A program made the position numbers and the translations under genes. Source: a bacterium (lineage in GTDB: Bacteria > Elusimicrobiota > Elusimicrobia > Elusimicrobiales > UBA9959). Taken from it: a DNA stretch of 64,000 nt. The DNA lies in NCBI GenBank assembly GCA_021847485.1, contig JAJZRA010000003.1, forward strand, positions 7,819 to 71,818. Reading direction: 5' to 3'. The notes beneath the pieces are model-generated. The model was given only the letters and a program-made list of their open reading frames with translations. It searched no databases and was not told the DNA's origin. This document shows positions 1,768-64,000 of this stretch, piece after piece; the first letter of the stretch is position 1, and each line of letters starts with the position of its first letter.

Positions 1768-2928
1768 ATGACCAGGGCGGAAGAACTGGAGAACAGGCTG
1801 CGCCAGCTCGTGTACTTCGGAGGGGCGGTCTCGAAGGAGACCAACCTGACGAAGCTGCTCGAGCTCATAGCCGACCAGGTGAAGACCATCCTCAACTGCG
1901 ACCGCTGCAGCGTCTTCATCATGGACCGCCAGACCAACGAGCTCTGGAGCAAGGTCGCGCTAGGCATGCAGCATACCGAGATCCGCGTGCCGTTCGGCAA
2001 GGGGATCGTCGGCCACGTGGCCTCCTCCGGCCAGACGGTCAACATCAAGGACGCCTACCAGGACGAACGCTTCACCCACGATATCGACCGCCTGACCGGC
2101 TACCGCACGCGCAGCATCCTGGCCGTACCGCTCAAGAACGTCGGCGGCAGCATCATCGGCGTCTTCGAGGCGATGAACAAGGCCGGCCTGCCCTTCGACG
2201 GGGACGACGAGGGCATCCTGCAGCTTATCAGCTCGCTGGCCGCCTCGGCCATCGAGAACGCCCAGCTCTACGAGAGCCTCTCCAAGTCCCAGCTCGAGAC
2301 CATCTACCGCCTGGCCGTCACGGCCGAGTACCGCGACCAGCAGGACACGGCCATCCACCTGCGGCACATCAGCGAGTACTCCGCGCTGATCGCGCAGGGC
2401 CTCGGGATGCCGGAGCGGGAGATCGAGAACATCCGCTACGCCAGCCCGCTGCACGACATCGGCAAGGTCGGCATCGCCGACGCGATCCTCCTGAAGCCCG
2501 GCAAGCTCACCGCCGAGGAGTTCGAGGAGATGAAGAAGCACACGATCTACGGCTCCAAGATCCTCTGCAACGCCGAGAGCCACCTGCTGCAGGTGGCCTG
2601 CAAGGTGGCCGGCTCGCACCACGAGAAGTTCGACGGGAGCGGCTATCCGTCGCGGCTGAAGGGCGACCAGATCCCCCTCTACGCCAGGATAGTCTCCGTG
2701 GCCGACGTGTTCGACGCGCTGTGCATGCCGCGCGTCTACAAGCCGAAATGGGACCCCGAGAAGGCCCGCGAGTACATCCTCGAGGAGAGCGGCAAGTCCT
2801 TCGACCCGGTCGTAGTGGAGGCCTTCGGGAAGGTCTACGGCGAGATCCTGAAGATGCACGCCCTGGGCGACGGCAAGAGCACTATCATCCCGGGCATCAC
2901 GCGGGAGCTGCACCGTCACAACTTCTGA
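1768..2928 (+). CDS. GAF domain / HD-GYP domain protein (probable c-di-GMP phosphodiesterase)
   Basis: N-terminal GAF-like region. The C-terminal region carries HD (PLHDIGK) and HHEKFDGSGYP motifs. Confidence 0.85.
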   Translation: MTRAEELENRLRQLVYFGGAVSKETNLTKLLELIADQVKTILNCDRCSVFIMDRQTNELWSKVALGMQHTEIRVPFGKGIVGHVASSGQTVNIKDAYQDERFTHDIDRLTGYRTRSILAVPLKNVGGSIIGVFEAMNKAGLPFDGDDEGILQLISSLAASAIENAQLYESLSKSQLETIYRLAVTAEYRDQQDTAIHLRHISEYSALIAQGLGMPEREIENIRYASPLHDIGKVGIADAILLKPGKLTAEEFEEMKKHTIYGSKILCNAESHLLQVACKVAGSHHEKFDGSGYPSRLKGDQIPLYARIVSVADVFDALCMPRVYKPKWDPEKAREYILEESGKSFDPVVVEAFGKVYGEILKMHALGDGKSTIIPGITRELHRHNF

Positions 2929-3429: not shown

Positions 3430-4128
3430 GTGGACCCGGAAGTCTCTGTCATAATCCCCTGCCTGGACGAGGCCGCCAACGCGGCCTCTTACGGCGGGAC
3501 GCTGCTGGAGCCGCTGCGCGCGGCCCTGCCCTCTTTCGAGCTGATCTTCTCCGACGGCGGCAGCGCCGACGGCACGGTGGACCGCCTGTGGGAGCTGGCC
3601 GGGCGCTACCCGGGCGTCTCGGCGCTGGCCGGCGGCAGCTACTCTTTCCGGGCCTCGCTGGAACGCGCCGTAGCGGCGGCCCGCGGCCGCTATATCCTCT
3701 TCATGGAGGCGGACCTCTCTTTCGACCCGGCCGACGCGGCGCGGCTGCTGGCCGAGGCGCGCGCCTCGGGGGCGGACTGCGTGTGCGGCTCGCCGTTCCG
3801 CGGCGGCTTCGAGGGCCTGCCGGCCGGCCGGCGCCTGCTGACGTCCGCCGCCAACCTGCTGCTGCGCCTGCGCTTCGGCCCGCGCCTCACCTCCTACACC
3901 CAGATCTTCAAGCTCTACCGGGCCGACAGGCTCAAGACCCTCCGCTTCGAGACCGAGGGCTTCGCGCTGGACGCCGAGCTGCTCATCAAGTTCCTCAGGC
4001 GGGGCTGGAAAGTGACCGAGGTCCCCGTCACCATGCGCGCCCGCCGCGCCGGCGCCTCCAAGCTGGCCGCCGGCCGCGAAACCCTCAACTGCCTAAAGCT
4101 CCTCCTCCGCCGCGACTTCTCAGCCTGA
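3430..4128 (+). CDS. Glycosyltransferase family 2 (polyprenyl-phosphate sugar synthase-like, divergent DXD)
   Basis: VSVIIPCLDE N-terminus, SDGGSADGT and FMEADLS motifs. GT2 size and fold pattern. GTG start. Confidence 0.65.
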   Translation: MDPEVSVIIPCLDEAANAASYGGTLLEPLRAALPSFELIFSDGGSADGTVDRLWELAGRYPGVSALAGGSYSFRASLERAVAAARGRYILFMEADLSFDPADAARLLAEARASGADCVCGSPFRGGFEGLPAGRRLLTSAANLLLRLRFGPRLTSYTQIFKLYRADRLKTLRFETEGFALDAELLIKFLRRGWKVTEVPVTMRARRAGASKLAAGRETLNCLKLLLRRDFSA

Positions 4129-4142
4129 AATAACATAAGCCC

Positions 4143-4570
4143 GCCACGGGCCCGGGGGCCGGAAAAACCGGGGGTCGGTCCACCAAGTGAATGGGCCCGT
4201 CGGGCACGCTATCGGCCACACCGTGGCCGCGCTCCCGCTCGGGCTTGAACGCTGAATTGTGTCGCCTGCTCCGCAGGCTCCACCCGGCGCTGCGCAAGCC
4301 TCGCCCTGCGCGAGGGCCCGCCGACCCCATCCACTTGGCGTCCCGCCAGAACCCGGAGGGCCGGCAAGGGTATGCCTTTCGAGGGATGTCGCGGAAGGTC
4401 CGGCTTGCGTAAGCGCCGGACCCGAGCGATCAAGGCGCGGGCACGGTGGCCGTCTGTGGCGCATAGCGCCTGTTACGGCACGGCCATAGGCCAGTGCGCG
4501 ACGCCGGTTTTTCCGGCCCCCGGGCCCGTGGCAGGCCAAACGAGCTACGGGCACACCCACTTGGTGGACC
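4143..4570. repeat. Composite non-coding, highly self-complementary element (copy 1; contains the 145-nt core 4363-4507)
   Basis: 29-bp perfect inverted repeat (4143-4171 / 4504-4532). 13-bp perfect inverted repeat (4177-4189 / 4558-4570). Hairpins at 4214-4228, 4264-4278 and 4303-4317. The core is about 90% identical to 33773-33916. Only GC-shadow ORFs cross it. Confidence 0.8.
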
Positions 4571-4601
4571 TACTTGATTTATCACGGGGAGAAAGACGGA
4601 A

Positions 4602-5639
4602 CTAGATGCGGATCTTGGCTATGGCGAGGCCGATGAGGATGAACTCCAGGCCGAGGACGGCGACTATCAGGACGCCCCAGGCGAGCGGGACCTGCGTCAT
4701 CAGCCAGGCGAAGAGGCTCAGGAGCAGCGTAGCCAGGGAGGCCAGCCGCACGACCTGGCGCCGCGTGAAGCCGATCTTCTCCAGCCGCAGCGCGAAGTGG
4801 TCCTTGCTGCCGAGGAACGGCGAGTGCCCGCGGCGCAGCCGCATCACCGAGACGAAGACCGTATCGTAGATCGGCACCGCCAGGATGAACAGCGGCGCGT
4901 AGACGCCGAGCGGGTTGACGTCGGAATAGCGGGTGCCGAGCGCCACCACGGCCAGCACGAAGCCGCACAGCAGGCTGCCCGAGTCCCCCATGAAGATCTT
5001 CAGGCCCTTCGACAGGTTGTACGGCAGGAAGCCGAGCACCGCGCCGGCCAGCGCGGCCGAGGCGAAATTGACGTAGATGGCCTCCGACGGGAACGCTATC
5101 AGCAGGAAGCCGAAGGCCGCCAGCGCGGCCTGGCCGGCGGAAAGCCCGTCCATGATGTCGATGATGTTGAAAGCGTTGGAGACGCCGACTATCCACAGCA
5201 CGGTCAGCGCGAACGACACGTACTCCGGCTGGATGAAATGGATGCGGATGCCGTAGAGCGCCGTGAAGAGCGCCACGATGAACTGCACCGCGAACTTGGT
5301 CTTGAACCCGAGGCCGTGCGGCTTGTACATGTCGTCGATGAAGCCGAGCGTGAACATCACGCCGCCGCCCAGCAGCAGGATGCGCAGGTCGTGCAGCGTA
5401 CCCGTGGGGAAGGAGGTATAGAGGCGCATCACCACGAGCGACACGGCGAAGGCCGCGAAGATGGCCGTCCCGCCCAGCAGCGGCGTCGGGTGCTTGTGCG
5501 TCTTGATGTCGGTAGGCGTATCGACGTGGCCGTAGCGCAGCGCCAGCGCCCTCAGCAGCGGCGTGACGCCCAGCGAGATGGCCAGCGGCAGCGCGAAGGC
5601 CATCAGGTAGTGGATAAAATTGCGGCTCAGGTCATTCAT
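4602..5639 (-). CDS. Polyprenyl-phosphate HexNAc-1-phosphate transferase (WecA/MraY family, GT4)
   Basis: Multi-TM protein with HKHPTPLLGG, NAFNIIDIMDGLS and FMGDSGS motifs. Confidence 0.85.
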   Translation of the reverse strand: MNDLSRNFIHYLMAFALPLAISLGVTPLLRALALRYGHVDTPTDIKTHKHPTPLLGGTAIFAAFAVSLVVMRLYTSFPTGTLHDLRILLLGGGVMFTLGFIDDMYKPHGLGFKTKFAVQFIVALFTALYGIRIHFIQPEYVSFALTVLWIVGVSNAFNIIDIMDGLSAGQAALAAFGFLLIAFPSEAIYVNFASAALAGAVLGFLPYNLSKGLKIFMGDSGSLLCGFVLAVVALGTRYSDVNPLGVYAPLFILAVPIYDTVFVSVMRLRRGHSPFLGSKDHFALRLEKIGFTRRQVVRLASLATLLLSLFAWLMTQVPLAWGVLIVAVLGLEFILIGLAIAKIRI

Positions 5640-10861: not shown

Positions 10862-12283
10862 ATGAAAGTACTGGTCCTCAACCCGTTCTACGGAGAAGAT
10901 TTCTGCCGGTCTGCCCGCTGGGCCGCCAAGTCGCGCGGCCGCGTGCAGCGCCACCCCGACTGGCTGCTTACGGCCGTGGCCGTGCTGGAGCGCGGCGGCC
11001 ACGAGGTGAAGTTCATCGACGCCGCTGCGCTGAACCTGGACCTGGCGGCCGTGACCGCCATGGCCGCGGAGTTCAAGCCCGCCCTCGCCGTGGTCCACAC
11101 CACCACCCCTTCCATCTATTCCGACCTGGAGCACGCAAAGGCCCTCAAGAACGCCTGCGGCTGCCGCACCGTGCTGGTGGGGCCCCACGTCACCGCTCTG
11201 CCCGGGGACACCTTCGCCATAGCCGCCGGCGCGGCCGACTTCATCGCCAGGGGTGAATACGACTACCAGCTGCTCGACCTGGCCGACGGCAAGGACCCGG
11301 CCGCCGTCCCCGGCCTGAGCTACCTGTCCGGCGGCAAAGCGGTCAGCAACCCCTACGGCGCGCCGATAGACGTGAACACCCTGCCATTCCCCGCGTGGCG
11401 CCACATCGAGCCGGAATGGTACAAGGACGTGGCCAAGCGCTTCCCGTTCCTGACGCTGATCTCGGGGCGCGGCTGCCTCGGCCGCTGCACGTTCTGCCGC
11501 GACACGACCGAATCAATGCACGGCCGCCACATGCGGCTGCGCTCGCCCTCCGCCATCGTCGACGAGATGGAGTACGACCTCAAGCTTTTCCCGCAGCTGC
11601 GCGAGATCATGTTCGAGACGGATACGCTGACGGGCTCCCCGGGCCACCTGCGCTCGCTCTGCGAGGAGATCCTTAAGCGCGGGCTGAAGGTCACGTGGAG
11701 CTGCAACACCCGCGTGGACATGGACCTGTCGCTGCTGCCGCTGATGCGCAAGGCGGGCTGCCGCATGCTGATGATCGGCTTCGAGTTCGGCACGCAGGAG
11801 GCGCTGGACGCCGTCAAGAAGGGGGTCACGCTGGACCAGTCACGGAAGTTCGCCGCCGAGGCCTCCCGGCTGGGATTTACGCTGCACGGCTGCTTCATGG
11901 TGGGCGCTCCCGGCGAGACCAAGGAGTCCGCCCGGGCCACGATAGAGCTCGCCAAGAGCCTGCCGCTGGACACGGTGCAGTTCTCCGGGATCTGCGTCTA
12001 CCCCGGCACCGAGCTCTACGACTGGGCGAAAAAGAACGGCTACCTGGTCCCCAAGGACTGGCGGGACTGGGTCAGCCCTGAGCGCGAGCAGGTCACGCTG
12101 CTGAACTACCCCCAGCTTTCCAAATCGGAAATAGATTATTTTATAGACCGGGGCCTTAAGGAATTCTACCTGCGCCCGGCGCAGATGCTGCGGATGCTTT
12201 TCTCTTCTCCGGCGGACCTGCTGCGCAAACTCTACGGCGCGCGCAGTTTCTTCTCCTACCTGCTCGGCCGCAAGAAGGGCTGA
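10862..12283 (+). CDS. Cobalamin-binding-domain radical SAM enzyme (class B type)
   Basis: N-terminal B12-binding-like Rossmann region. Radical SAM cluster motif CLGRCTFC (CxxxCxxC). Confidence 0.8.
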   Translation: MKVLVLNPFYGEDFCRSARWAAKSRGRVQRHPDWLLTAVAVLERGGHEVKFIDAAALNLDLAAVTAMAAEFKPALAVVHTTTPSIYSDLEHAKALKNACGCRTVLVGPHVTALPGDTFAIAAGAADFIARGEYDYQLLDLADGKDPAAVPGLSYLSGGKAVSNPYGAPIDVNTLPFPAWRHIEPEWYKDVAKRFPFLTLISGRGCLGRCTFCRDTTESMHGRHMRLRSPSAIVDEMEYDLKLFPQLREIMFETDTLTGSPGHLRSLCEEILKRGLKVTWSCNTRVDMDLSLLPLMRKAGCRMLMIGFEFGTQEALDAVKKGVTLDQSRKFAAEASRLGFTLHGCFMVGAPGETKESARATIELAKSLPLDTVQFSGICVYPGTELYDWAKKNGYLVPKDWRDWVSPEREQVTLLNYPQLSKSEIDYFIDRGLKEFYLRPAQMLRMLFSSPADLLRKLYGARSFFSYLLGRKKG

Positions 12284-12294
12284 ACCGCCTCAGC

Positions 12295-12325
12295 CTGCGG
12301 GCCGCTCAGGAAGACCGGCCCGCAG
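12295..12325. terminator. Intergenic hairpin between convergent genes (possible bidirectional terminator, no U-tract)
   Basis: CTGCGGGCCG (12295-12304) pairs perfectly with CGGCCCGCAG (12316-12325). Confidence 0.4.
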
Positions 12326-12337
12326 AAGCCTTAACCT

Positions 12338-13306
12338 TCATTTGCGCCCGTCCTTCAGCAGGAAACCGGCTCCCCAGGCCAGGCCCAGCACCCACGCGAA
12401 ACCCCGGAAATAGAACAGCACCGCGGAGCAGAACAGGCGCGGCGAACCGGAAGCGCGCACGCCGAACAGCACCGACGGGGAATTGACCAGGAAAGCCGCC
12501 AGGTTCAGCGCCAGCGCGGGCAGGCGGAGCTCCGGCACGAAAGGCGAGGCCGCGAGGCAGGTCAGCGCCGCTGCGAACAGCGGCGGCTGGAGCGCGTCCA
12601 GGAAATTACTGTAGCCCGGGGCGCCGGTGCTGCCGTTCTTGGCTAGCAGCTTCATGATCCAGTAGCCGCGCCAGAACTGCTGGCGCACGAAATGGACTGC
12701 CCCGGTCGGGAAGTGGTGGTAGACCAGGCAATCCTTCTCGAAACGGAACCGGTGGCCGGCCTTGCGCAGCCGGAAGGACAGGTCCGAGTCCTCGCCGCAG
12801 GCGATGCGGAAGCTCTCGTCGAAACCGCCGGCCTCCTCGAGCGCGGAACGGCGGACCGCCAGGCTGAACGACCCCAGGTAGGACACTTCCGCGCCCAGCC
12901 TGGCGTGCCGATACTGGATGTCGTAATGTATGCATTGCGCCACCAGGCTCTCCGGATTCCTTATGCCGTAGCTGCCGCCCGCCGCCGAGACGGACGGGTC
13001 GGAGAAGAGCGCCAGCAGTTTCTCCACCCAGCGCGGCTCGGGCACGCAGTCGGAGTCGGTAAAGAAAACTATCTCTCCCGAGGAGGAACGCCAGCCAAGG
13101 TTGCGGGCCTTGGCCGGGCCGGCGTTCTCCTGGCGCAGGTACTTCACCGGCCTGGAGCGGACGGCCGCCGCGGTGCCGTCGGTGGAGCCGTCGTCTACCA
13201 CCAGGACTTCCAGGTCCTTTACGGTCTGCGCCAGCAGGGCGTCCACCGCCAGGCCGATCGTCCTGGCCCCGTTGTATACCGGTACGACTACTGAAACTTT
13301 CGGCAT
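12338..13306 (-). CDS. Glycosyltransferase family 2 with C-terminal membrane segments
   Basis: VVVPVYNG, VVDDGSTDGT and TDSDCVP motifs. Hydrophobic C-terminal third. Confidence 0.85.
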   Translation of the reverse strand: MPKVSVVVPVYNGARTIGLAVDALLAQTVKDLEVLVVDDGSTDGTAAAVRSRPVKYLRQENAGPAKARNLGWRSSSGEIVFFTDSDCVPEPRWVEKLLALFSDPSVSAAGGSYGIRNPESLVAQCIHYDIQYRHARLGAEVSYLGSFSLAVRRSALEEAGGFDESFRIACGEDSDLSFRLRKAGHRFRFEKDCLVYHHFPTGAVHFVRQQFWRGYWIMKLLAKNGSTGAPGYSNFLDALQPPLFAAALTCLAASPFVPELRLPALALNLAAFLVNSPSVLFGVRASGSPRLFCSAVLFYFRGFAWVLGLAWGAGFLLKDGRK

Positions 13307-13311
13307 ATAGA

Positions 13312-14421
13312 CTATCTCTCCAGACCCGCTTCCCTGAGCCAGGCGGCGGTCACGGCGGGCCAGGCGAAGTTCTTCAGCACCCAGTCCCTGCCCGCGGCCG
13401 CCCGGCGCGCGGCCGCGGCAGGATCGGCCGCTACCGCCTCCACCTTGCGGGCAAAATCCCCCGCGTCTTCGGCTATCTCCACGAAATCCCCGAACAGTTC
13501 TATGTCCCCCCCGCGGCTGGAAACCACCGGCAGGCCGAGGGCCAGATATTCGCGGACCTTGATCTGCGAGCGGTAGCGGTCGCGCGGCTCGTGGCTCAGC
13601 AGGAAATTCACGGCGATGCTCCCGCGGCGCATATAGGCCAGGGCCTCTTCGTGCGGCAGGTAGCCGGTGAAGCGCACCCGGTCCTTGACGCCCAGGGCCT
13701 CCGCCTTACGCTCCAGCTCCGGCTGCAGTTCCCCGCCCCCGATGACCAGGAGGCGGTAACGGACGCCCAGGCCCGCGAAGATCTCCAGCAGCGGCCCAAG
13801 GGCCGCGGCCGGGCCGAGGTGGGCCGCGTAGACCAGCGTCACGGCGCGGTCCCAGCCCGCCGGCAGTTCCGGCAGCTGACGCGGAGGGCCGTACTTTTCC
13901 GGGGTTATCCCCTGCGCCAGCGTGGTGACGCGGGCCCCGGGGATCCCGCGGGCTACGAGGTATTCCCGCAGCGCGGCGTTATGCACGCAGACCGTGTCCG
14001 CCCGCTTCAGGAAAAAAAGCTGCATGGCCTCTATGACGCGGCGGGCAAGGGGCCCGGAAGCGTAGCCGGAGTCCAGGTCGTCGAAATCCGCGGCGACCCG
14101 GCTGCCGTAAAGGGCCCGGGCCAGCAGGGCCGGCAGGGCGGTATGCGGGAAAGGCTTCATTACCATCACGGCGCCGGGCCTGACGGCGCGCAGGAGCGCA
14201 AGGTTGGCGCATAGCGCCGGCAGTACCCAGAGGGCAGGCGCGGAGAACCGGCCGCTCAGGCGGTGCAGGCGGAACCCCTCGGCGCCGGGGGAACCTTCGG
14301 GGCCGCAGGGCTCGGAATAATCCACTTCGTGGCCGAGGGCGCCGAGGGCGCCGCAGATCCCGCGGTTCCTTATGGAACTGCCGCTGCGGCTCGACAGGGA
14401 GGAGAGGACGCAGAATTTCAT
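13312..14421 (-). CDS. Glycosyltransferase family 1 (GT-B fold, GT4-like)
   Basis: Trimmed to MKFCVLSS... at 14421 (ATGA overlap with the upstream gene). C-terminal EYLALGLPVVSSRGGD... motif block is typical of GT1. Confidence 0.75.
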   Translation of the reverse strand: MKFCVLSSLSSRSGSSIRNRGICGALGALGHEVDYSEPCGPEGSPGAEGFRLHRLSGRFSAPALWVLPALCANLALLRAVRPGAVMVMKPFPHTALPALLARALYGSRVAADFDDLDSGYASGPLARRVIEAMQLFFLKRADTVCVHNAALREYLVARGIPGARVTTLAQGITPEKYGPPRQLPELPAGWDRAVTLVYAAHLGPAAALGPLLEIFAGLGVRYRLLVIGGGELQPELERKAEALGVKDRVRFTGYLPHEEALAYMRRGSIAVNFLLSHEPRDRYRSQIKVREYLALGLPVVSSRGGDIELFGDFVEIAEDAGDFARKVEAVAADPAAAARRAAAGRDWVLKNFAWPAVTAAWLREAGLER

Positions 14422-31008: not shown

Positions 31009-31107
31009 GTATAGCCGGTCGCCGGCGGCGCGCCGCCCGCGGTCTTTAATTATATAAATAAATATCCCCCTATTGGAACCCCGCCCCAGTTTGCCCCTGG
31101 GGCCGGA

Positions 31108-31146
31108 CCGCGAGAAGCGAAGCCGGACCGACTTCGCTTCTCGCGG
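31108..31146. other. 15-bp perfect hairpin in the dnaE/nudF divergent region
   Basis: CCGCGAGAAGCGAAG-N9-CTTCGCTTCTCGCGG. GCCGGACCG is directly repeated at 31102-31110 and 31122-31130. Confidence 0.6.
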
Positions 31147-31186
31147 CGGCTGAACGGATATTAGCGCCCGGGTTTTGCGGAAATTA

Positions 31187-31192
31187 TATAAT
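31187..31192 (+). promoter_or_regulatory. Candidate -10 box TATAAT, 7 nt upstream of the ATG at 31200
   Basis: AAATTATATAATTGGAGGGATG. The GGAGG ends only 1 nt before the ATG, which is too close to serve as a normal Shine-Dalgarno. Confidence 0.4.
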
Positions 31193-31199
31193 TGGAGGG

Positions 31200-31773: not shown

Positions 31774-33738
31774 ATGAAATTCGACACGACCGACACCCTG
31801 TGCGTCAACACGATCCGGACCCTTTCCATAGACATGGTGGGCAAGGCCGACAGCGGCCACCCCGGACTGCCCCTCGGCGCGTCGCCGCTGGCCTACGCGG
31901 TGTGGGCCGGCCACCTCAGGTTCTCCGCGTCCGATCCCGACTGGTTCGACAGGGACCGCTTCGTGCTGTCCGCCGGGCACGGCTCGTCGATGCTGTACTC
32001 GATGCTGCACCTCTACGGCTTCGGCCTGGAGATGGACGAGCTCAAGAAGTTCCGCCAGCTCGACAGCCTCACCCCCGGCCATCCGGAGTACGGCCACACC
32101 AAAGGCGTCGAGACGACCACCGGCCCGCTGGGCCAGGGCTTCGCCAACGCCGTCGGCATGGCGCTCGCCGAGAAGCTGCTGGCGCAGAAGCTCAACACGC
32201 CCGAGCACGCGCTCGTAGACCATTTCACCTACGTCATCTGCGGCGACGGCGACCTGATGGAAGGCGTCAGCTACGAGGCCGCCTCGCTGGCCGGCACGTG
32301 GAAGCTCGGCAAGCTGATCTGCCTCTACGATTCCAACGGCATCACGATCGAAGGTTCCACCGGGCTGGCCTTCACCGAAGACGTGAAAAAGCGCTTCCTC
32401 GCGCAGGGCTGGCAGGTCGTCGAGGTCGAGAACGGCAACGACCTGTCCGAGATCGACCTCGCGATAAAGAAAGCCAAGCGCGAGACGGAGCAGCCGTCGC
32501 TCATCATCGCCAGGACCCATATAGGCTTCGGCAGCCCCAAGCAGGACCGGAACTCCGTGCACGGCGAACCTCTCAAGCCCGAGGAGATCCTGGCCACCAA
32601 GAAGGCGCTGGGCTGGCCCTCGGAGGAGCCGTTCTTCGTGCCCGAAGAGGCGAAGGCCCGCTTCGCCGAGCAGACCGCCGCCGGCGAGCGCGACCGCAAG
32701 CGCTGGCTGAAGCTCTGGAAGAATTACGCCGAGGCCGACCCCTCCAAGGCCGACCTCGCCAAGGCCATGCTGGGCCGCGAGATCCCCGAGGGCCTCTTCG
32801 CCCAGGACGCCGCCTTCTTCGACAAGCCCGTCGCCACGCGCGAGGCCTCCGGCAAGGTCATCAACCTGATGGCCGCCGCGCTGCCCGGCCTGACCGGCGG
32901 CTCGGCCGACCTAGGCCCGTCGACCAAGACCGACTTCACCAAGGAGCCCGAGCGCACGCTGCACTTCGGCATCCGCGAGCACGCGATGGGCTCTATCCTC
33001 AACGGCCTCGCGCTGCACGGCGGGCTGATCCCGTTCGGCGCGACGTTCCTGGTCTTCTCCGACTACATGCGCCCGGCGCTGCGCCTGGCCGCGCTGATGC
33101 AGTGCCCGTCCATCTTCGTCTTCACGCACGACAGCATCGGCGTGGGCGAGGACGGCCCGACGCACCAGCCGGTGGAGCACCTGATGAGCCTGCGCCTAAT
33201 CCCCGGCCTCACGGTGCTGCGACCGGCGGACGCGTGGGAGACCCTTTACGCCTGGGAGACCGCCGTGCGTTCGAAGCGCCCGGCCTGCCTGGCGCTGTCG
33301 CGGCAGAAGCTGCCGCTGCTGACGCAGTATAAGGAAAAGATAGCCGCCGGCGTGAAGCGCGGCGCCTACCTGCTGCGCGGCCCGTCCACCGTGCCGTCGA
33401 TAGAACTGATAGCCTCGGGCTCCGAGGTCTCGCTGCTCTTCGAGGCCGCGGCGCTGCTGGAGAAGGACGGCATAGCCGCCCGCATCATCTCGGTGCCCTC
33501 TTTCGAGCTGTTCCGCGGGCAGGACCAGGCCTACAAGGACTCGGTGTTCCTGCCGAACATGCCCAAGCTCGCCGTGGAGGCGGGCCGCGGCGTCGGCTGG
33601 ACGGAGCTGGTCGGGCCGGACGTGGAGGTCCTCGGCGTGGAGACTTTCGGCAAGTCCGCGCCCGCCGCCCGCGCCTACGAGGCGCTGGGCCTGACGGCGG
33701 AAAAGATCGCCGCCGCCGCCAAAAGATTGGTGAAGTAA
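31774..33738 (+). CDS. tkt: Transketolase
   Basis: SGHPG and GDGDLMEG thiamine-diphosphate motifs. 654 aa, full three-domain length. Confidence 0.95.
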
Positions 33739-33772
33739 TTATTTTTCCGCAGCGTTCTCGCCGCGGAGGGGT

Positions 33773-33939
33773 GGCGAGGGCGTGCCTTTCGAGGGATGTC
33801 GCTCGGGTCCGGCTTGCGTAAGCGCCGGACCCGAGCGAACAAGGCGCGGGCACGGTGGCCGTCTGTGGCGCATAGCGCTTGAGACGGCACGGCCATAGGC
33901 CAGTGCCCGACGCCGGCCCGAGGAAGGCATGCCCTCGCC
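33773..33939 (+). ncRNA. Candidate structured RNA / repeat element (copy 2 of the 4363-4507 core), family unknown
   Basis: Predicted helices:
- P1: 33773-33788 / 33924-33939, 16-bp closing stem with one G-U.
- P2: 33800-33813 / 33824-33837, 14-bp perfect hairpin.
- P3: 33844-33853 / 33903-33913, 10 bp plus a bulged A.
- P4: hairpin 33859-33887.
- P5: GGCC-ATA-GGCC hairpin 33891-33901.
Both wobble pairs are G-U only on the plus strand. Confidence 0.45.
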
Positions 33940-34003
33940 AGGCCCCCGACTCCGCATCCCGCGGTTCTTACCGGCGACAACGCTGCCCTCAGGGGGACAC
34001 AAA

Positions 34004-34918
34004 ATGACGCATTCAATCGCTATCGCCGGGATGGGCAGGATGGGGGCCAACATGGCCCGCCGCCTGCTCGCCAAAGGCGTGAAGCCGCACGTCTGGAACC
34101 GGGACCCGGAGAAGCTCAAGCCGCTCGCCGCCGCCGGCGCGGCCGCCTCGGCCTCGCTGGCGGACCTCGCCGCCGCGATGAAAGGCCCGCGCCTCGTCTG
34201 GATGATGCTGCCCGCCGGCGAGCCCACCGAGACCATCTTCCGCGAACTGCTGCGGCTGCTGCGCAAAGACGACCTCATCGTCGACGGCGCCAACGGCAAC
34301 TGGCGCGACGCCGTCGCGCGCGCCGAAAAGGCCGCCGAGCGCGGCATCGGCTTCCTGGACGCGGGCGTCTCCGGCGGGATCTGGGGCCTCGAGAAGGGCT
34401 ACTGCGTCATGACCGGCGGCGCGGCCGCCGCGCACGCCGCCGCCGAGCCCTTCCTGAAAGCCCTCTGCGCGGAGGGCGGCTACCTGCACTGCGGCGCCTC
34501 CGGCGCCGGGCATTTCACCAAGATGGTGCATAACGGCATCGAATACGGGATGATGGAGGCCTCCGGCGAGGGGTTCGAGCTGCTCAGGGCGTCCCCCTTC
34601 GGCGGCGCGGACATGGCCGCCGTCGCCGCGCTGTGGAACCGCGGCAGCGTGATCCGCTCCTGGCTGCTGGAACTGGCGCAGAGCGCCTTCGAGAAGGACC
34701 CCGAACTGGAGCGCGTGGCCGGCGTCGTGGCCGATTCCGGCGAAGGCCGCTGGACCGTGGAGGAGGCCGCGCGCCTGGGCGTGCCGCTGCCGGCGATCTC
34801 GGTCTCGCTGTTCAAGCGTTTCCGCTCGCAGATGAAGGACGATTTCGGAGACCGCCTCGCGGCGGCGCTGCGCAACGAGTTCGGCGGCCACGCCGTGAAA
34901 ACGGCGGGGGAGAGGTAA
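34004..34918 (+). CDS. gnd: 6-phosphogluconate dehydrogenase, short (about 300 aa) decarboxylating form
   Basis: GMGRMGANMARRL Rossmann loop and a 6PGDH C-terminal domain. AGGGGGA RBS upstream of the ATG at 34004. Confidence 0.85.
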   Translation: MTHSIAIAGMGRMGANMARRLLAKGVKPHVWNRDPEKLKPLAAAGAAASASLADLAAAMKGPRLVWMMLPAGEPTETIFRELLRLLRKDDLIVDGANGNWRDAVARAEKAAERGIGFLDAGVSGGIWGLEKGYCVMTGGAAAAHAAAEPFLKALCAEGGYLHCGASGAGHFTKMVHNGIEYGMMEASGEGFELLRASPFGGADMAAVAALWNRGSVIRSWLLELAQSAFEKDPELERVAGVVADSGEGRWTVEEAARLGVPLPAISVSLFKRFRSQMKDDFGDRLAAALRNEFGGHAVKTAGER

Positions 34919-63925: not shown

Positions 63926-64000
63926 TGGTGCGCCCGGCAGGAATCGAACCTGCACTTAGAGCTTCGGAGGCTCCCGTGATATCCATTTCACTACGGGCGC
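63926..64000 (-). tRNA. tRNA-Arg (anticodon CCG), CCA encoded
   Basis: The reverse complement folds as a 75-nt cloverleaf. Acceptor stem GCGCCCG/CGGGCGC, D arm GTGA..TCAC, anticodon stem-loop GGAGC-CTCCGAA-GCTCT, T arm GCAGG-TTCGATT-CCTGC, then ACCA. Confidence 0.93.

Follow-up and report, generated by a model that had tools for sequence, protein, structure and literature searches.

Previously, the bcr1 repeat of the Bacillus cereus group has been described as a cruciform-like element of ~155 bp with two independent stem-loops, in which compensatory changes occur and whose genomic distribution is not conserved (PMC3184786). Miniature inverted-repeat transposable elements (MITEs) are non-autonomous and shorter than 400 bp, carry terminal inverted repeats, adopt long stable folds, and show presence/absence polymorphism at intergenic sites (PMC3184786). 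Repetitive extragenic palindromes (REPs) replicate as doublets, and compensatory changes are frequently seen in them (PMC3116915). The present study concerns a 473-nt spacer (4129..4601) in a 64,000-nt stretch of DNA from a bacterium of the Elusimicrobiota (Elusimicrobiales; contig JAJZRA010000003.1 of assembly GCA_021847485.1). This stretch is hereafter called the window, and all coordinates refer to it unless a locus of a related genome (L006 and the like) is named. The spacer runs from the stop of a GT2 gene (3430-4128, plus strand, 232 aa, Pfam PF00535) to the stop of a WecA-like gene that converges on it (4602-5639, minus strand, Pfam PF00953). The reading that we favor, with somewhat better than even confidence, is that two diverged units stand head to head in the spacer and belong to a family of structured repeats, akin to bcr1, MITEs and REPs, that is scattered over intergenic sites in one clade of the Elusimicrobiota (Elusimicrobiales).

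A unit of this family is 140-185 nt long, and one of its strands folds into a Y shape in which a closing helix of 20-28 bp (P1) carries two hairpins (P2 and P3). A covariance model of the unit (R1, built from six sequences; R2 is its refined version) finds two full-length units on opposite strands of the spacer, where the sequence-only reading had seen one large element. Unit E2, of the beta subtype, occupies 4172..4347 on the minus strand (cmsearch, 79.2 bits, E = 3e-15, full model), and unit E1, of the alpha subtype, occupies 4355..4524 on the plus strand (105.1 bits). The two stand head to head, with their 5′ ends 7 nt apart and their 3′ tails pointing outward. On alignment, E2 corresponds to the reverse complement of units of the E1 type, and in both the window and L030 the left half of the spacer resembles the reverse complement of the right half. 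Each unit ends, in its own orientation, with CCGGTTTTTCCGGCCCCCGGGCCCGTGGC(A/G)GGC, and the tail of the L006 unit is related (GGCCCCGGGCCCGCGGCGGGC). Because the E1 and E2 tails are 97% identical and face outward, they form a 33-bp inverted repeat, in which arm A (4139..4171, plus strand, the reverse complement of the E2 3′ tail) pairs with arm A′ (4504..4536, plus strand, the E1 3′ tail) at 97%. Its perfect 29-nt core (4143-4171 with 4504-4532) had been recognized from the letters alone, as had a perfect 13-mer (4177-4189 with 4558-4570) that lies within a second inverted repeat, B/B′ (4174-4200 with 4547-4573, 27 nt, 85%). Arm B additionally pairs with B″ (4316-4345; 30 nt, 77%), and these two arms are P1 of E2 on the minus strand (5′ arm 4322-4344, 3′ arm 4177-4199). 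An 8-bp pair proposed earlier (4171-4178 with 4321-4328) is out of register with this comparatively supported helix. Arm B′ (4547..4573, plus strand; ACGGGCACACCCACTTGGTGGACCTAC) is an orphan 3′ arm of a beta-type P1. It is related, in direct orientation, to the P1 3′ arm of E2 and is probably the remnant of a third unit. Thus, the long inverted repeats exist because each unit has its own closing helix and because two inverted copies carry near-identical 33-nt tails.

The sequence-only reading of one large element would correspond to a single structured noncoding RNA (ncRNA) of ~430 nt closed by A/A′. The minimum-energy fold of 4130-4600 is indeed closed by the A/A′ helix, and the fold of this 471-nt stretch stands well apart from its shuffles (z = -8.3 and -7.4 for the plus and minus strands, respectively, with 0 shuffles equal). 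However, A/A′ and B/B′ are crossed, and a single hairpin could therefore not hold both as nested stems. Furthermore, the two units are independent and lie on opposite strands, and each is found alone elsewhere (copy B, described below, L006, L039 and L040). The doublets of relatives lack A/A′, and in L037 a gene parts the two halves. These comparative data contradict one such large RNA, which is, in our view, scarcely credible.

Within E2, P2 (4235-4313, minus strand) contains a 38-nt insertion specific to this copy, and P3 lies at 4208-4230 (minus strand). Among three small hairpins noted earlier, the one at 4214-4228 is conserved as the tip of this P3, whereas the one at 4264-4278 falls in the copy-specific insertion and the one at 4303-4317 is unsupported by the family structure. 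The nearest kin of E2 are the units of L039, L038 and L037 (70-79% identity). In E1, all on the plus strand, the P1 5′ arm lies at 4358-4380, P2 at 4389-4429 with the tip GCTTGCGTAAGCGC, and P3 at 4434-4505 with a branched tip. An intact alpha unit, copy B, occupies 33765..33949 on the plus strand (150.5 bits), between the transketolase gene (31774-33738, plus strand) and a 6PGD-like gene. Its 28-bp closing helix carries two hairpins, and the structure extends to 33763-33955 (-146.8 kcal/mol, z = -9.5). When the spacer was compared with the window by BLAST, the only other copy was at this site, where 33764-33916 matched the core 4354-4507 on the same strand over 154 nt at 91%. The earlier observation that a 145-nt core recurs 29 kb away therefore holds, except that the core is simply one unit. 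Relative to copy B, E1 has a 17-nt deletion, by which the P1 3′ arm is gone, and a 4-nt unpaired patch in P2, and it therefore looks degenerate. The identity between E1 and copy B is 87% in the model alignment and 91% over the BLAST match, in contrast to 49-67% between E1 and the units at the WecA and transketolase (Tkt) loci of relatives. This combination of high identity within the genome and low identity between genomes indicates intragenomic copying or gene conversion.

The fold of the unit is strongly supported by comparison of 12 units from 7 genomes. Standard pairs are found in 92.2% of cells as against 69.4% in column shuffles (0/500 reach 92.2%), and 35-45% of cells pair when the partners are slid. 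Both sides have changed in a compensatory manner in 37 of the 50 pairs. From one subtype to another, most positions of the closing helix have changed in sequence, yet its two arms remain complementary. The tips of P2 (GCUUGCGUAAGCGC) and P3 (GCACGGUG) are conserved, and a CGAC motif is likewise almost invariant; some units carry insertions at the tips of the hairpins or in the stretch that separates P2 from P3. G-U pairs outnumber A-C mismatches (34 vs 5, binomial p = 2e-6), and the model strand is 7 to 19 kcal/mol more stable than its complement in 12/12 units. The direction of this strand bias was unchanged when the structure was predicted on the reverse-complement alignment. The G-U excess and the uniform stability bias together point to one strand, either RNA or single-stranded DNA, as the object under selection.

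The same features bring in the main and serious rival of the repeat-family reading, namely, that the units are paralogous copies of a host ncRNA. Such an RNA could be a trans-acting small RNA or a cis-acting module (a 3′ untranslated region, a terminator or a stability element), and the patchy distribution would reflect gain and loss of RNA genes. We regard this as possible, though not probable. Very strong covariation that includes helices of 3-10 bp argues for it, and the bias toward G-U and the stability of one strand in every unit are as in RNA and not as in duplex DNA. Also in its favor are the conserved hairpin tips and the fact that several species have kept units beside WecA and transketolase. 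The leader of the L006 unit is preceded by a sigma-70-like promoter (CTGATA-17-TAAAAT) that ends ~10 nt before it. Several units have U-runs after P3 or the tail, and the minus strand of the window carries a terminator-like site at 4153-4137. However, the promoter-like site was seen in one of six regions scanned and is missing from the other five (the window copies, L038, L039 and L041), and the 7 nt between the 5′ ends of the window doublet leave no room for promoters. The orientation of the units relative to neighboring genes is inconsistent, even at one and the same locus (transketolase, plus in the window and minus in L039 and L040). Moreover, the L041 units sit between two probable divergent promoters, E1 persists despite the loss of one arm of its closing helix, and the family has no match in Rfam.

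The claim that no known RNA family accounts for the spacer stood up to Rfam searches at both gathering and E-value thresholds and to ARAGORN. Rfam 15 at gathering thresholds gave a single hit in the whole window, a tRNA at 63929-64000, which ARAGORN identifies as tRNA-Arg (CCG) on the minus strand at 63926-64000, the extreme end of the window. At E <= 10, no credible match was found over 4000-4750, 33700-34010 and L030 11030-11550. On six related loci, group II intron matches appeared in L041 alone, and all three subtypes (alpha, beta and gamma) were without a family. The top weak match was naRNA4, a REP325-derived two-hairpin RNA, to the minus strand of copy B with 22.6 bits and E = 0.048 in a 311-nt search. 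This score is far under the gathering threshold of 59.5, and no other unit matches naRNA4. A TCCACCA at 4180-4186 suggested a tRNA or tmRNA, including the two-piece form, and this candidate was rejected since ARAGORN was negative in the spacer. The 13 metagenome loci that match the 20-mer TGCCTTTCGAGGGATGTCGC represent one unrelated low-GC gut locus, where this 20-mer belongs to a terminator hairpin, and were discarded as chance matches.

A protein-coding role was also rejected. The single frame through the spacer (4120-4569, minus strand) has a GC content of 0.74 at second and 0.65 at third codon positions (GC2 and GC3), in contrast to ~0.45 and ~0.9 in the genes here. In a crude gene map of the window, each of the bigger apparent gaps lies under a long open reading frame (ORF), mostly with gene-like GC3. 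Thus, the 473-nt gap is noncoding, as had been stated from the letters, and is plausibly the longest such stretch in the window. The broader description of an exceptionally structured, noncoding element was likewise borne out, and the element is conserved in relatives.

Outside the window, an exact 19-mer from the alpha core occurs in the metagenome-assembled genome (MAG) SKS1.bin104, at locus L006. The L006 unit (2630-2769, minus strand, 153.5 bits) shares the closing helix and the first hairpin, in both of which the differences are compensatory. Its second hairpin is short, and it has an outer leader and tail like A/A′. Viral contigs matched neither the 19-mer nor the family-level pattern GCTTRCRTAAGCGC-N18-48-SCACGGTG. 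Homologues of the WecA-like protein place the organism in the Elusimicrobiota. Synteny around WecA, which converges on OsmC and is followed by HD-GYP and the genes beyond, is kept in relatives, while the junction itself is variable. It measures 54 nt with a simple hairpin and no unit in L032/L033 (WecA 84% identical to that of the window) and 50 nt with no unit in L036 (82%). In L030/L031 (86%) it is a 505-nt spacer with a doublet, collinear with the plus strand of the window and scoring 125 and 106 bits in L030 (minus, then plus), and in L038 (77%) it is 391 nt long with a doublet of 135 and 84 bits (minus, then plus). L037 (79%) has a unit at 12234-12373 (plus strand, 94.5 bits) and a weak minus-strand unit past a lipoprotein gene, so that a 244-aa ORF splits the doublet. 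L034 (80%) has the lipoprotein ORF, an insertion sequence (IS)-like ORF of 331 aa, and a fragment that matches part of the model, a truncated unit at 12184-12264.

The order of subtypes within these doublets differs between species. Relative to WecA, it is beta-minus followed by gamma-plus in L030 and L038, and (gamma-like or alpha)-minus followed by beta-plus in L037, L034 and the window. These orders imply one or more inversions of the doublet. This bears on the possibility that the spacer is an inverton, with A and A′ as crossover sites and with flipping of 4172-4503 altering the expression of the neighboring glycan genes. A near-perfect 33-bp inverted repeat that flanks 332 bp within a glycan-synthesis locus is suggestive of such a switch, as are the inverted subtype orders and the differing orientation of single units at the transketolase locus. 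However, no promoter-like site lies in or beside the segment, and both neighboring genes converge on it, which leaves nothing obvious to switch. There is no recombinase gene within 10 kb, and the L030 doublet has no outer inverted repeat. Furthermore, the spacer is identical and in the same orientation in all three distinct spanning contigs (two megahit assemblies and one MAG contig; four loci), and the alternative junction occurs in no contig. This identity also means that there is no covariation signal within the species. We consider an inverton highly improbable.

Logan contigs (k=31) from ~10 sequencing runs end at 4172 or 4201 when coming from the left and at 4509 when coming from the right. 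These ends are near the inner edges of the repeat, and a perfect repeat of only 29 nt would not by itself be expected to interrupt a k=31 graph, which counts in favor of inversion; poor coverage of GC-rich hairpins can, however, explain the breaks. Neither the 29-nt perfect repeat nor the 31-mers common to copy B explain them. The breaks are ambiguous between coverage drop-out, further genomic copies, and inversion. In a separate comparison of the window with contig JAKBIQ010000171.1 of GCA_021836445.1, 55 of the 60 differences over 5.2 kb fall in 1.1 kb (1143-2253), which spans the end of a Fer4/CCG gene and the start of a GAF/HD-GYP gene and suggests a recombination tract. The repeat spacer is identical between the two.

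A further possibility is that the units are recombination sites that act as folded single strands, either attC-like or as the ends of an undescribed single-strand transposon, with heads-in doublets bracketing cassettes. Conservation of structure above sequence and strand-specific folding would suit such sites. In L037 (11400-12134) and L034 (12341-13153), the doublet units bracket an ORF of 244-270 aa that is absent elsewhere; it bears a lipoprotein-type signal (LAGCS) and matches nothing in Pfam. In addition, the GT2 gene beside the window doublet is missing at the orthologous OsmC/WecA junction in 6/6 relatives examined. Its insertion is lineage-specific and falls on the hot spot that the repeats also occupy. 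However, GT2 is not bracketed by units and lies 25 nt from OsmC. On neither strand do any of the 12 units have the attC core sites RYYYAAC and GTTRRRY at their ends, and the flanks have no integrase or HUH transposase. Moreover, the units of a doublet are inverted, in contrast to cassette arrays, which have one orientation. Such sites are therefore quite improbable. The 331-aa ORF of L034 (11174-12169) lies in an AT-rich insert and has a Cys-rich basic N-terminal region, DDE-like spacing and no Pfam match. It directly adjoins the truncated unit and is probably an IS that inserted into or beside the repeat.

A second site, the transketolase/6PGD spacer, holds an alpha unit on the plus strand in the window, a beta unit on the minus strand in L039, and a gamma unit on the minus strand in L040. 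In L041, a complete group II intron (11979-13750; reverse transcriptase and maturase ORF, Rfam D1-D4 and domain V) lies ~14 nt past the transketolase stop and occupies the repeat site of the other genomes, and neither 6PGD nor G6PD is present downstream of it. A third site, the divergent DnaE/NUDIX spacer, has a doublet in L041 alone and is empty in L039 and L040. The partner unit at L041 9215-9354 follows the same Y layout, and its long closing helix (GGGTCTGTACGTGGGATGG / CCATCCCACGTACAGACC) is perfect, but its hairpin tips differ. The superfamily may extend beyond what the model captures. In the window, the DnaE/NUDIX spacer (31084-31146) contains a perfect 15-bp hairpin (CCGCGAGAAGCGAAG / CTTCGCTTCTCGCGG, 31108-31146), the loop and 3′ arm of which match the 3′ tail motif of the family (GGACCGACTTCGC..CTCGCGG). 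This hairpin looks like two outer tails that remained when a doublet lost its interior. The AT-rich motifs TTTAATTATATAAATAAAT and GGAAATTATATAATTGG (31045-31063 and 31179-31195), by the DnaE and NUDIX starts, are kept in the window, L039, L040 and L041 and are probably divergent promoters or an operator pair.

The data establish family membership, the fold, its strand bias and the patchy distribution. Beyond these, we infer that the family is mobile noncoding DNA of the bcr1, MITE or REP/BIME type, moved by some agent, that would spread, be lost, invert and be homogenized within genomes. The feature under selection would be the fold of one strand, in a transcript or in single-stranded DNA. 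Locally, the doublet would replace the short bidirectional terminator hairpin of the empty orthologous sites. Each of the convergent mRNAs would then include the near unit as antisense, followed by the far unit as sense and a U-run, and both would obtain very stable, partly complementary 3′ ends. A role at 3′ ends in convergent settings, whether in termination or stabilization, is possible but unproven.

Several observations weigh against the repeat-family reading. The 19-mer of the alpha core was found in only that one other genome among 185,579 species representatives. The R2 model found zero additional units in 268 kb (the window and all loci), and outside the loci chosen by orthology there are ~2 loci per ~270 kb, so that the copy number looks low. 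No target-site duplications were seen at the outermost pairs of 15 units or fragments, where the ends are not base-exact and short duplications could escape, and the filled site of L041 has none in comparison with the empty sites. In ~250 kb of annotated flanks there is no transposase, no RAYT (Y1_Tnp) gene and no parent IS with matching ends, and a search of ~270 kb likewise showed no such IS. The partners of a doublet are 50-60% identical to each other, so a doublet would generally not form a REPIN-like single hairpin. The shared occupancy of two intergenic sites by species whose flanking WecA and Tkt proteins are 77-90% identical to those of the window, the covariation that reaches short helices, and the strong bias of G-U over A-C are all what would be expected of a functional RNA selected by the host. 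An ordinary MITE, which the sequence-only reading had linked to many near-identical copies with target-site duplications, is not what was found, since the units are low-copy in the DNA examined, diverged and without duplications. Terminal inverted repeats of the MITE type are nevertheless present, as P1 (20-28 bp) in each unit and as the 33-bp repeats at the ends of the window doublet. Considering that no target-site duplications and, in the DNA examined, no parent IS or RAYT gene were seen, and that the units are far larger than REPs, we regard the repeats as a new family of this general kind that belongs to no named one.

A bolder version, which we consider unlikely, is that the Y-shaped unit represents a new class of functional element in the Elusimicrobiales that folds strand-specifically, either as an RNA module or as the single-strand substrate of a recombination or mobilization system. 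In the former case, a sense copy of the far unit would terminate each of the convergent mRNAs, whose 3′ ends would thereby be complementary over a long stretch. In the latter, doublets with their heads inward would undergo inversion and enclose cargo genes, of which the lipoprotein ORF of L037 and L034 would be an example. If the strand bias does reflect a function in RNA or single-stranded DNA, the family would offer a tractable entry into the mobile and regulatory biology of the Elusimicrobiota. Under the repeat-family reading, a striking sequence has an ordinary explanation, two inverted copies of a repeat and no giant new RNA, and a poorly studied phylum has an apparently undescribed family of structured repeats. 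The comparative support for the secondary structure is unusually strong for only 12 sequences, and the strand bias is clear. Metagenome assemblies break at elements of this sort, which can also mark rearrangement hot spots in glycan loci and pass for ncRNA genes.

The repeats resemble MITEs such as Correia/nemis, ERIC and RU-3 in their terminal inverted repeats, stable folds and intergenic presence or absence. However, the terminal repeats of MITEs are conserved, whereas the terminal helix of the Elusimicrobiota units varies with compensation and the hairpin tips are conserved, and MITE-like target-site duplications or a parent IS do not accompany the units in the DNA examined. With REPs, BIMEs and REPINs, they share an extragenic location, GC richness, inverted pairs, compensatory changes in hairpins, persistence within lineages, and a presumed action as folded single strands (PMC3116915). 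In contrast to REPs, which are simple hairpins of ~20-35 nt, and REPINs, which measure ~100 nt, the Elusimicrobiota unit is a three-way junction of 140-185 nt; it also differs in its apparently low copy number, as against tens to hundreds of copies for RAYT-dependent REPs, and in annotated flanks where no RAYT gene is seen. By architecture, the closest known element is bcr1, a group A interspersed repeat that is noncoding and intergenic. The two have a similar unit length (140-185 nt in Elusimicrobiota), the same shape, strong covariation and patchy occupancy, a likeness of architecture and not of sequence. They come from different phyla, bcr1 is known to be transcribed, and the 5-bp direct repeats of bcr1 were not found at the Elusimicrobiota units. 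Unlike bcr1, the latter often form head-to-head doublets that recur at the same intergenic sites across species.

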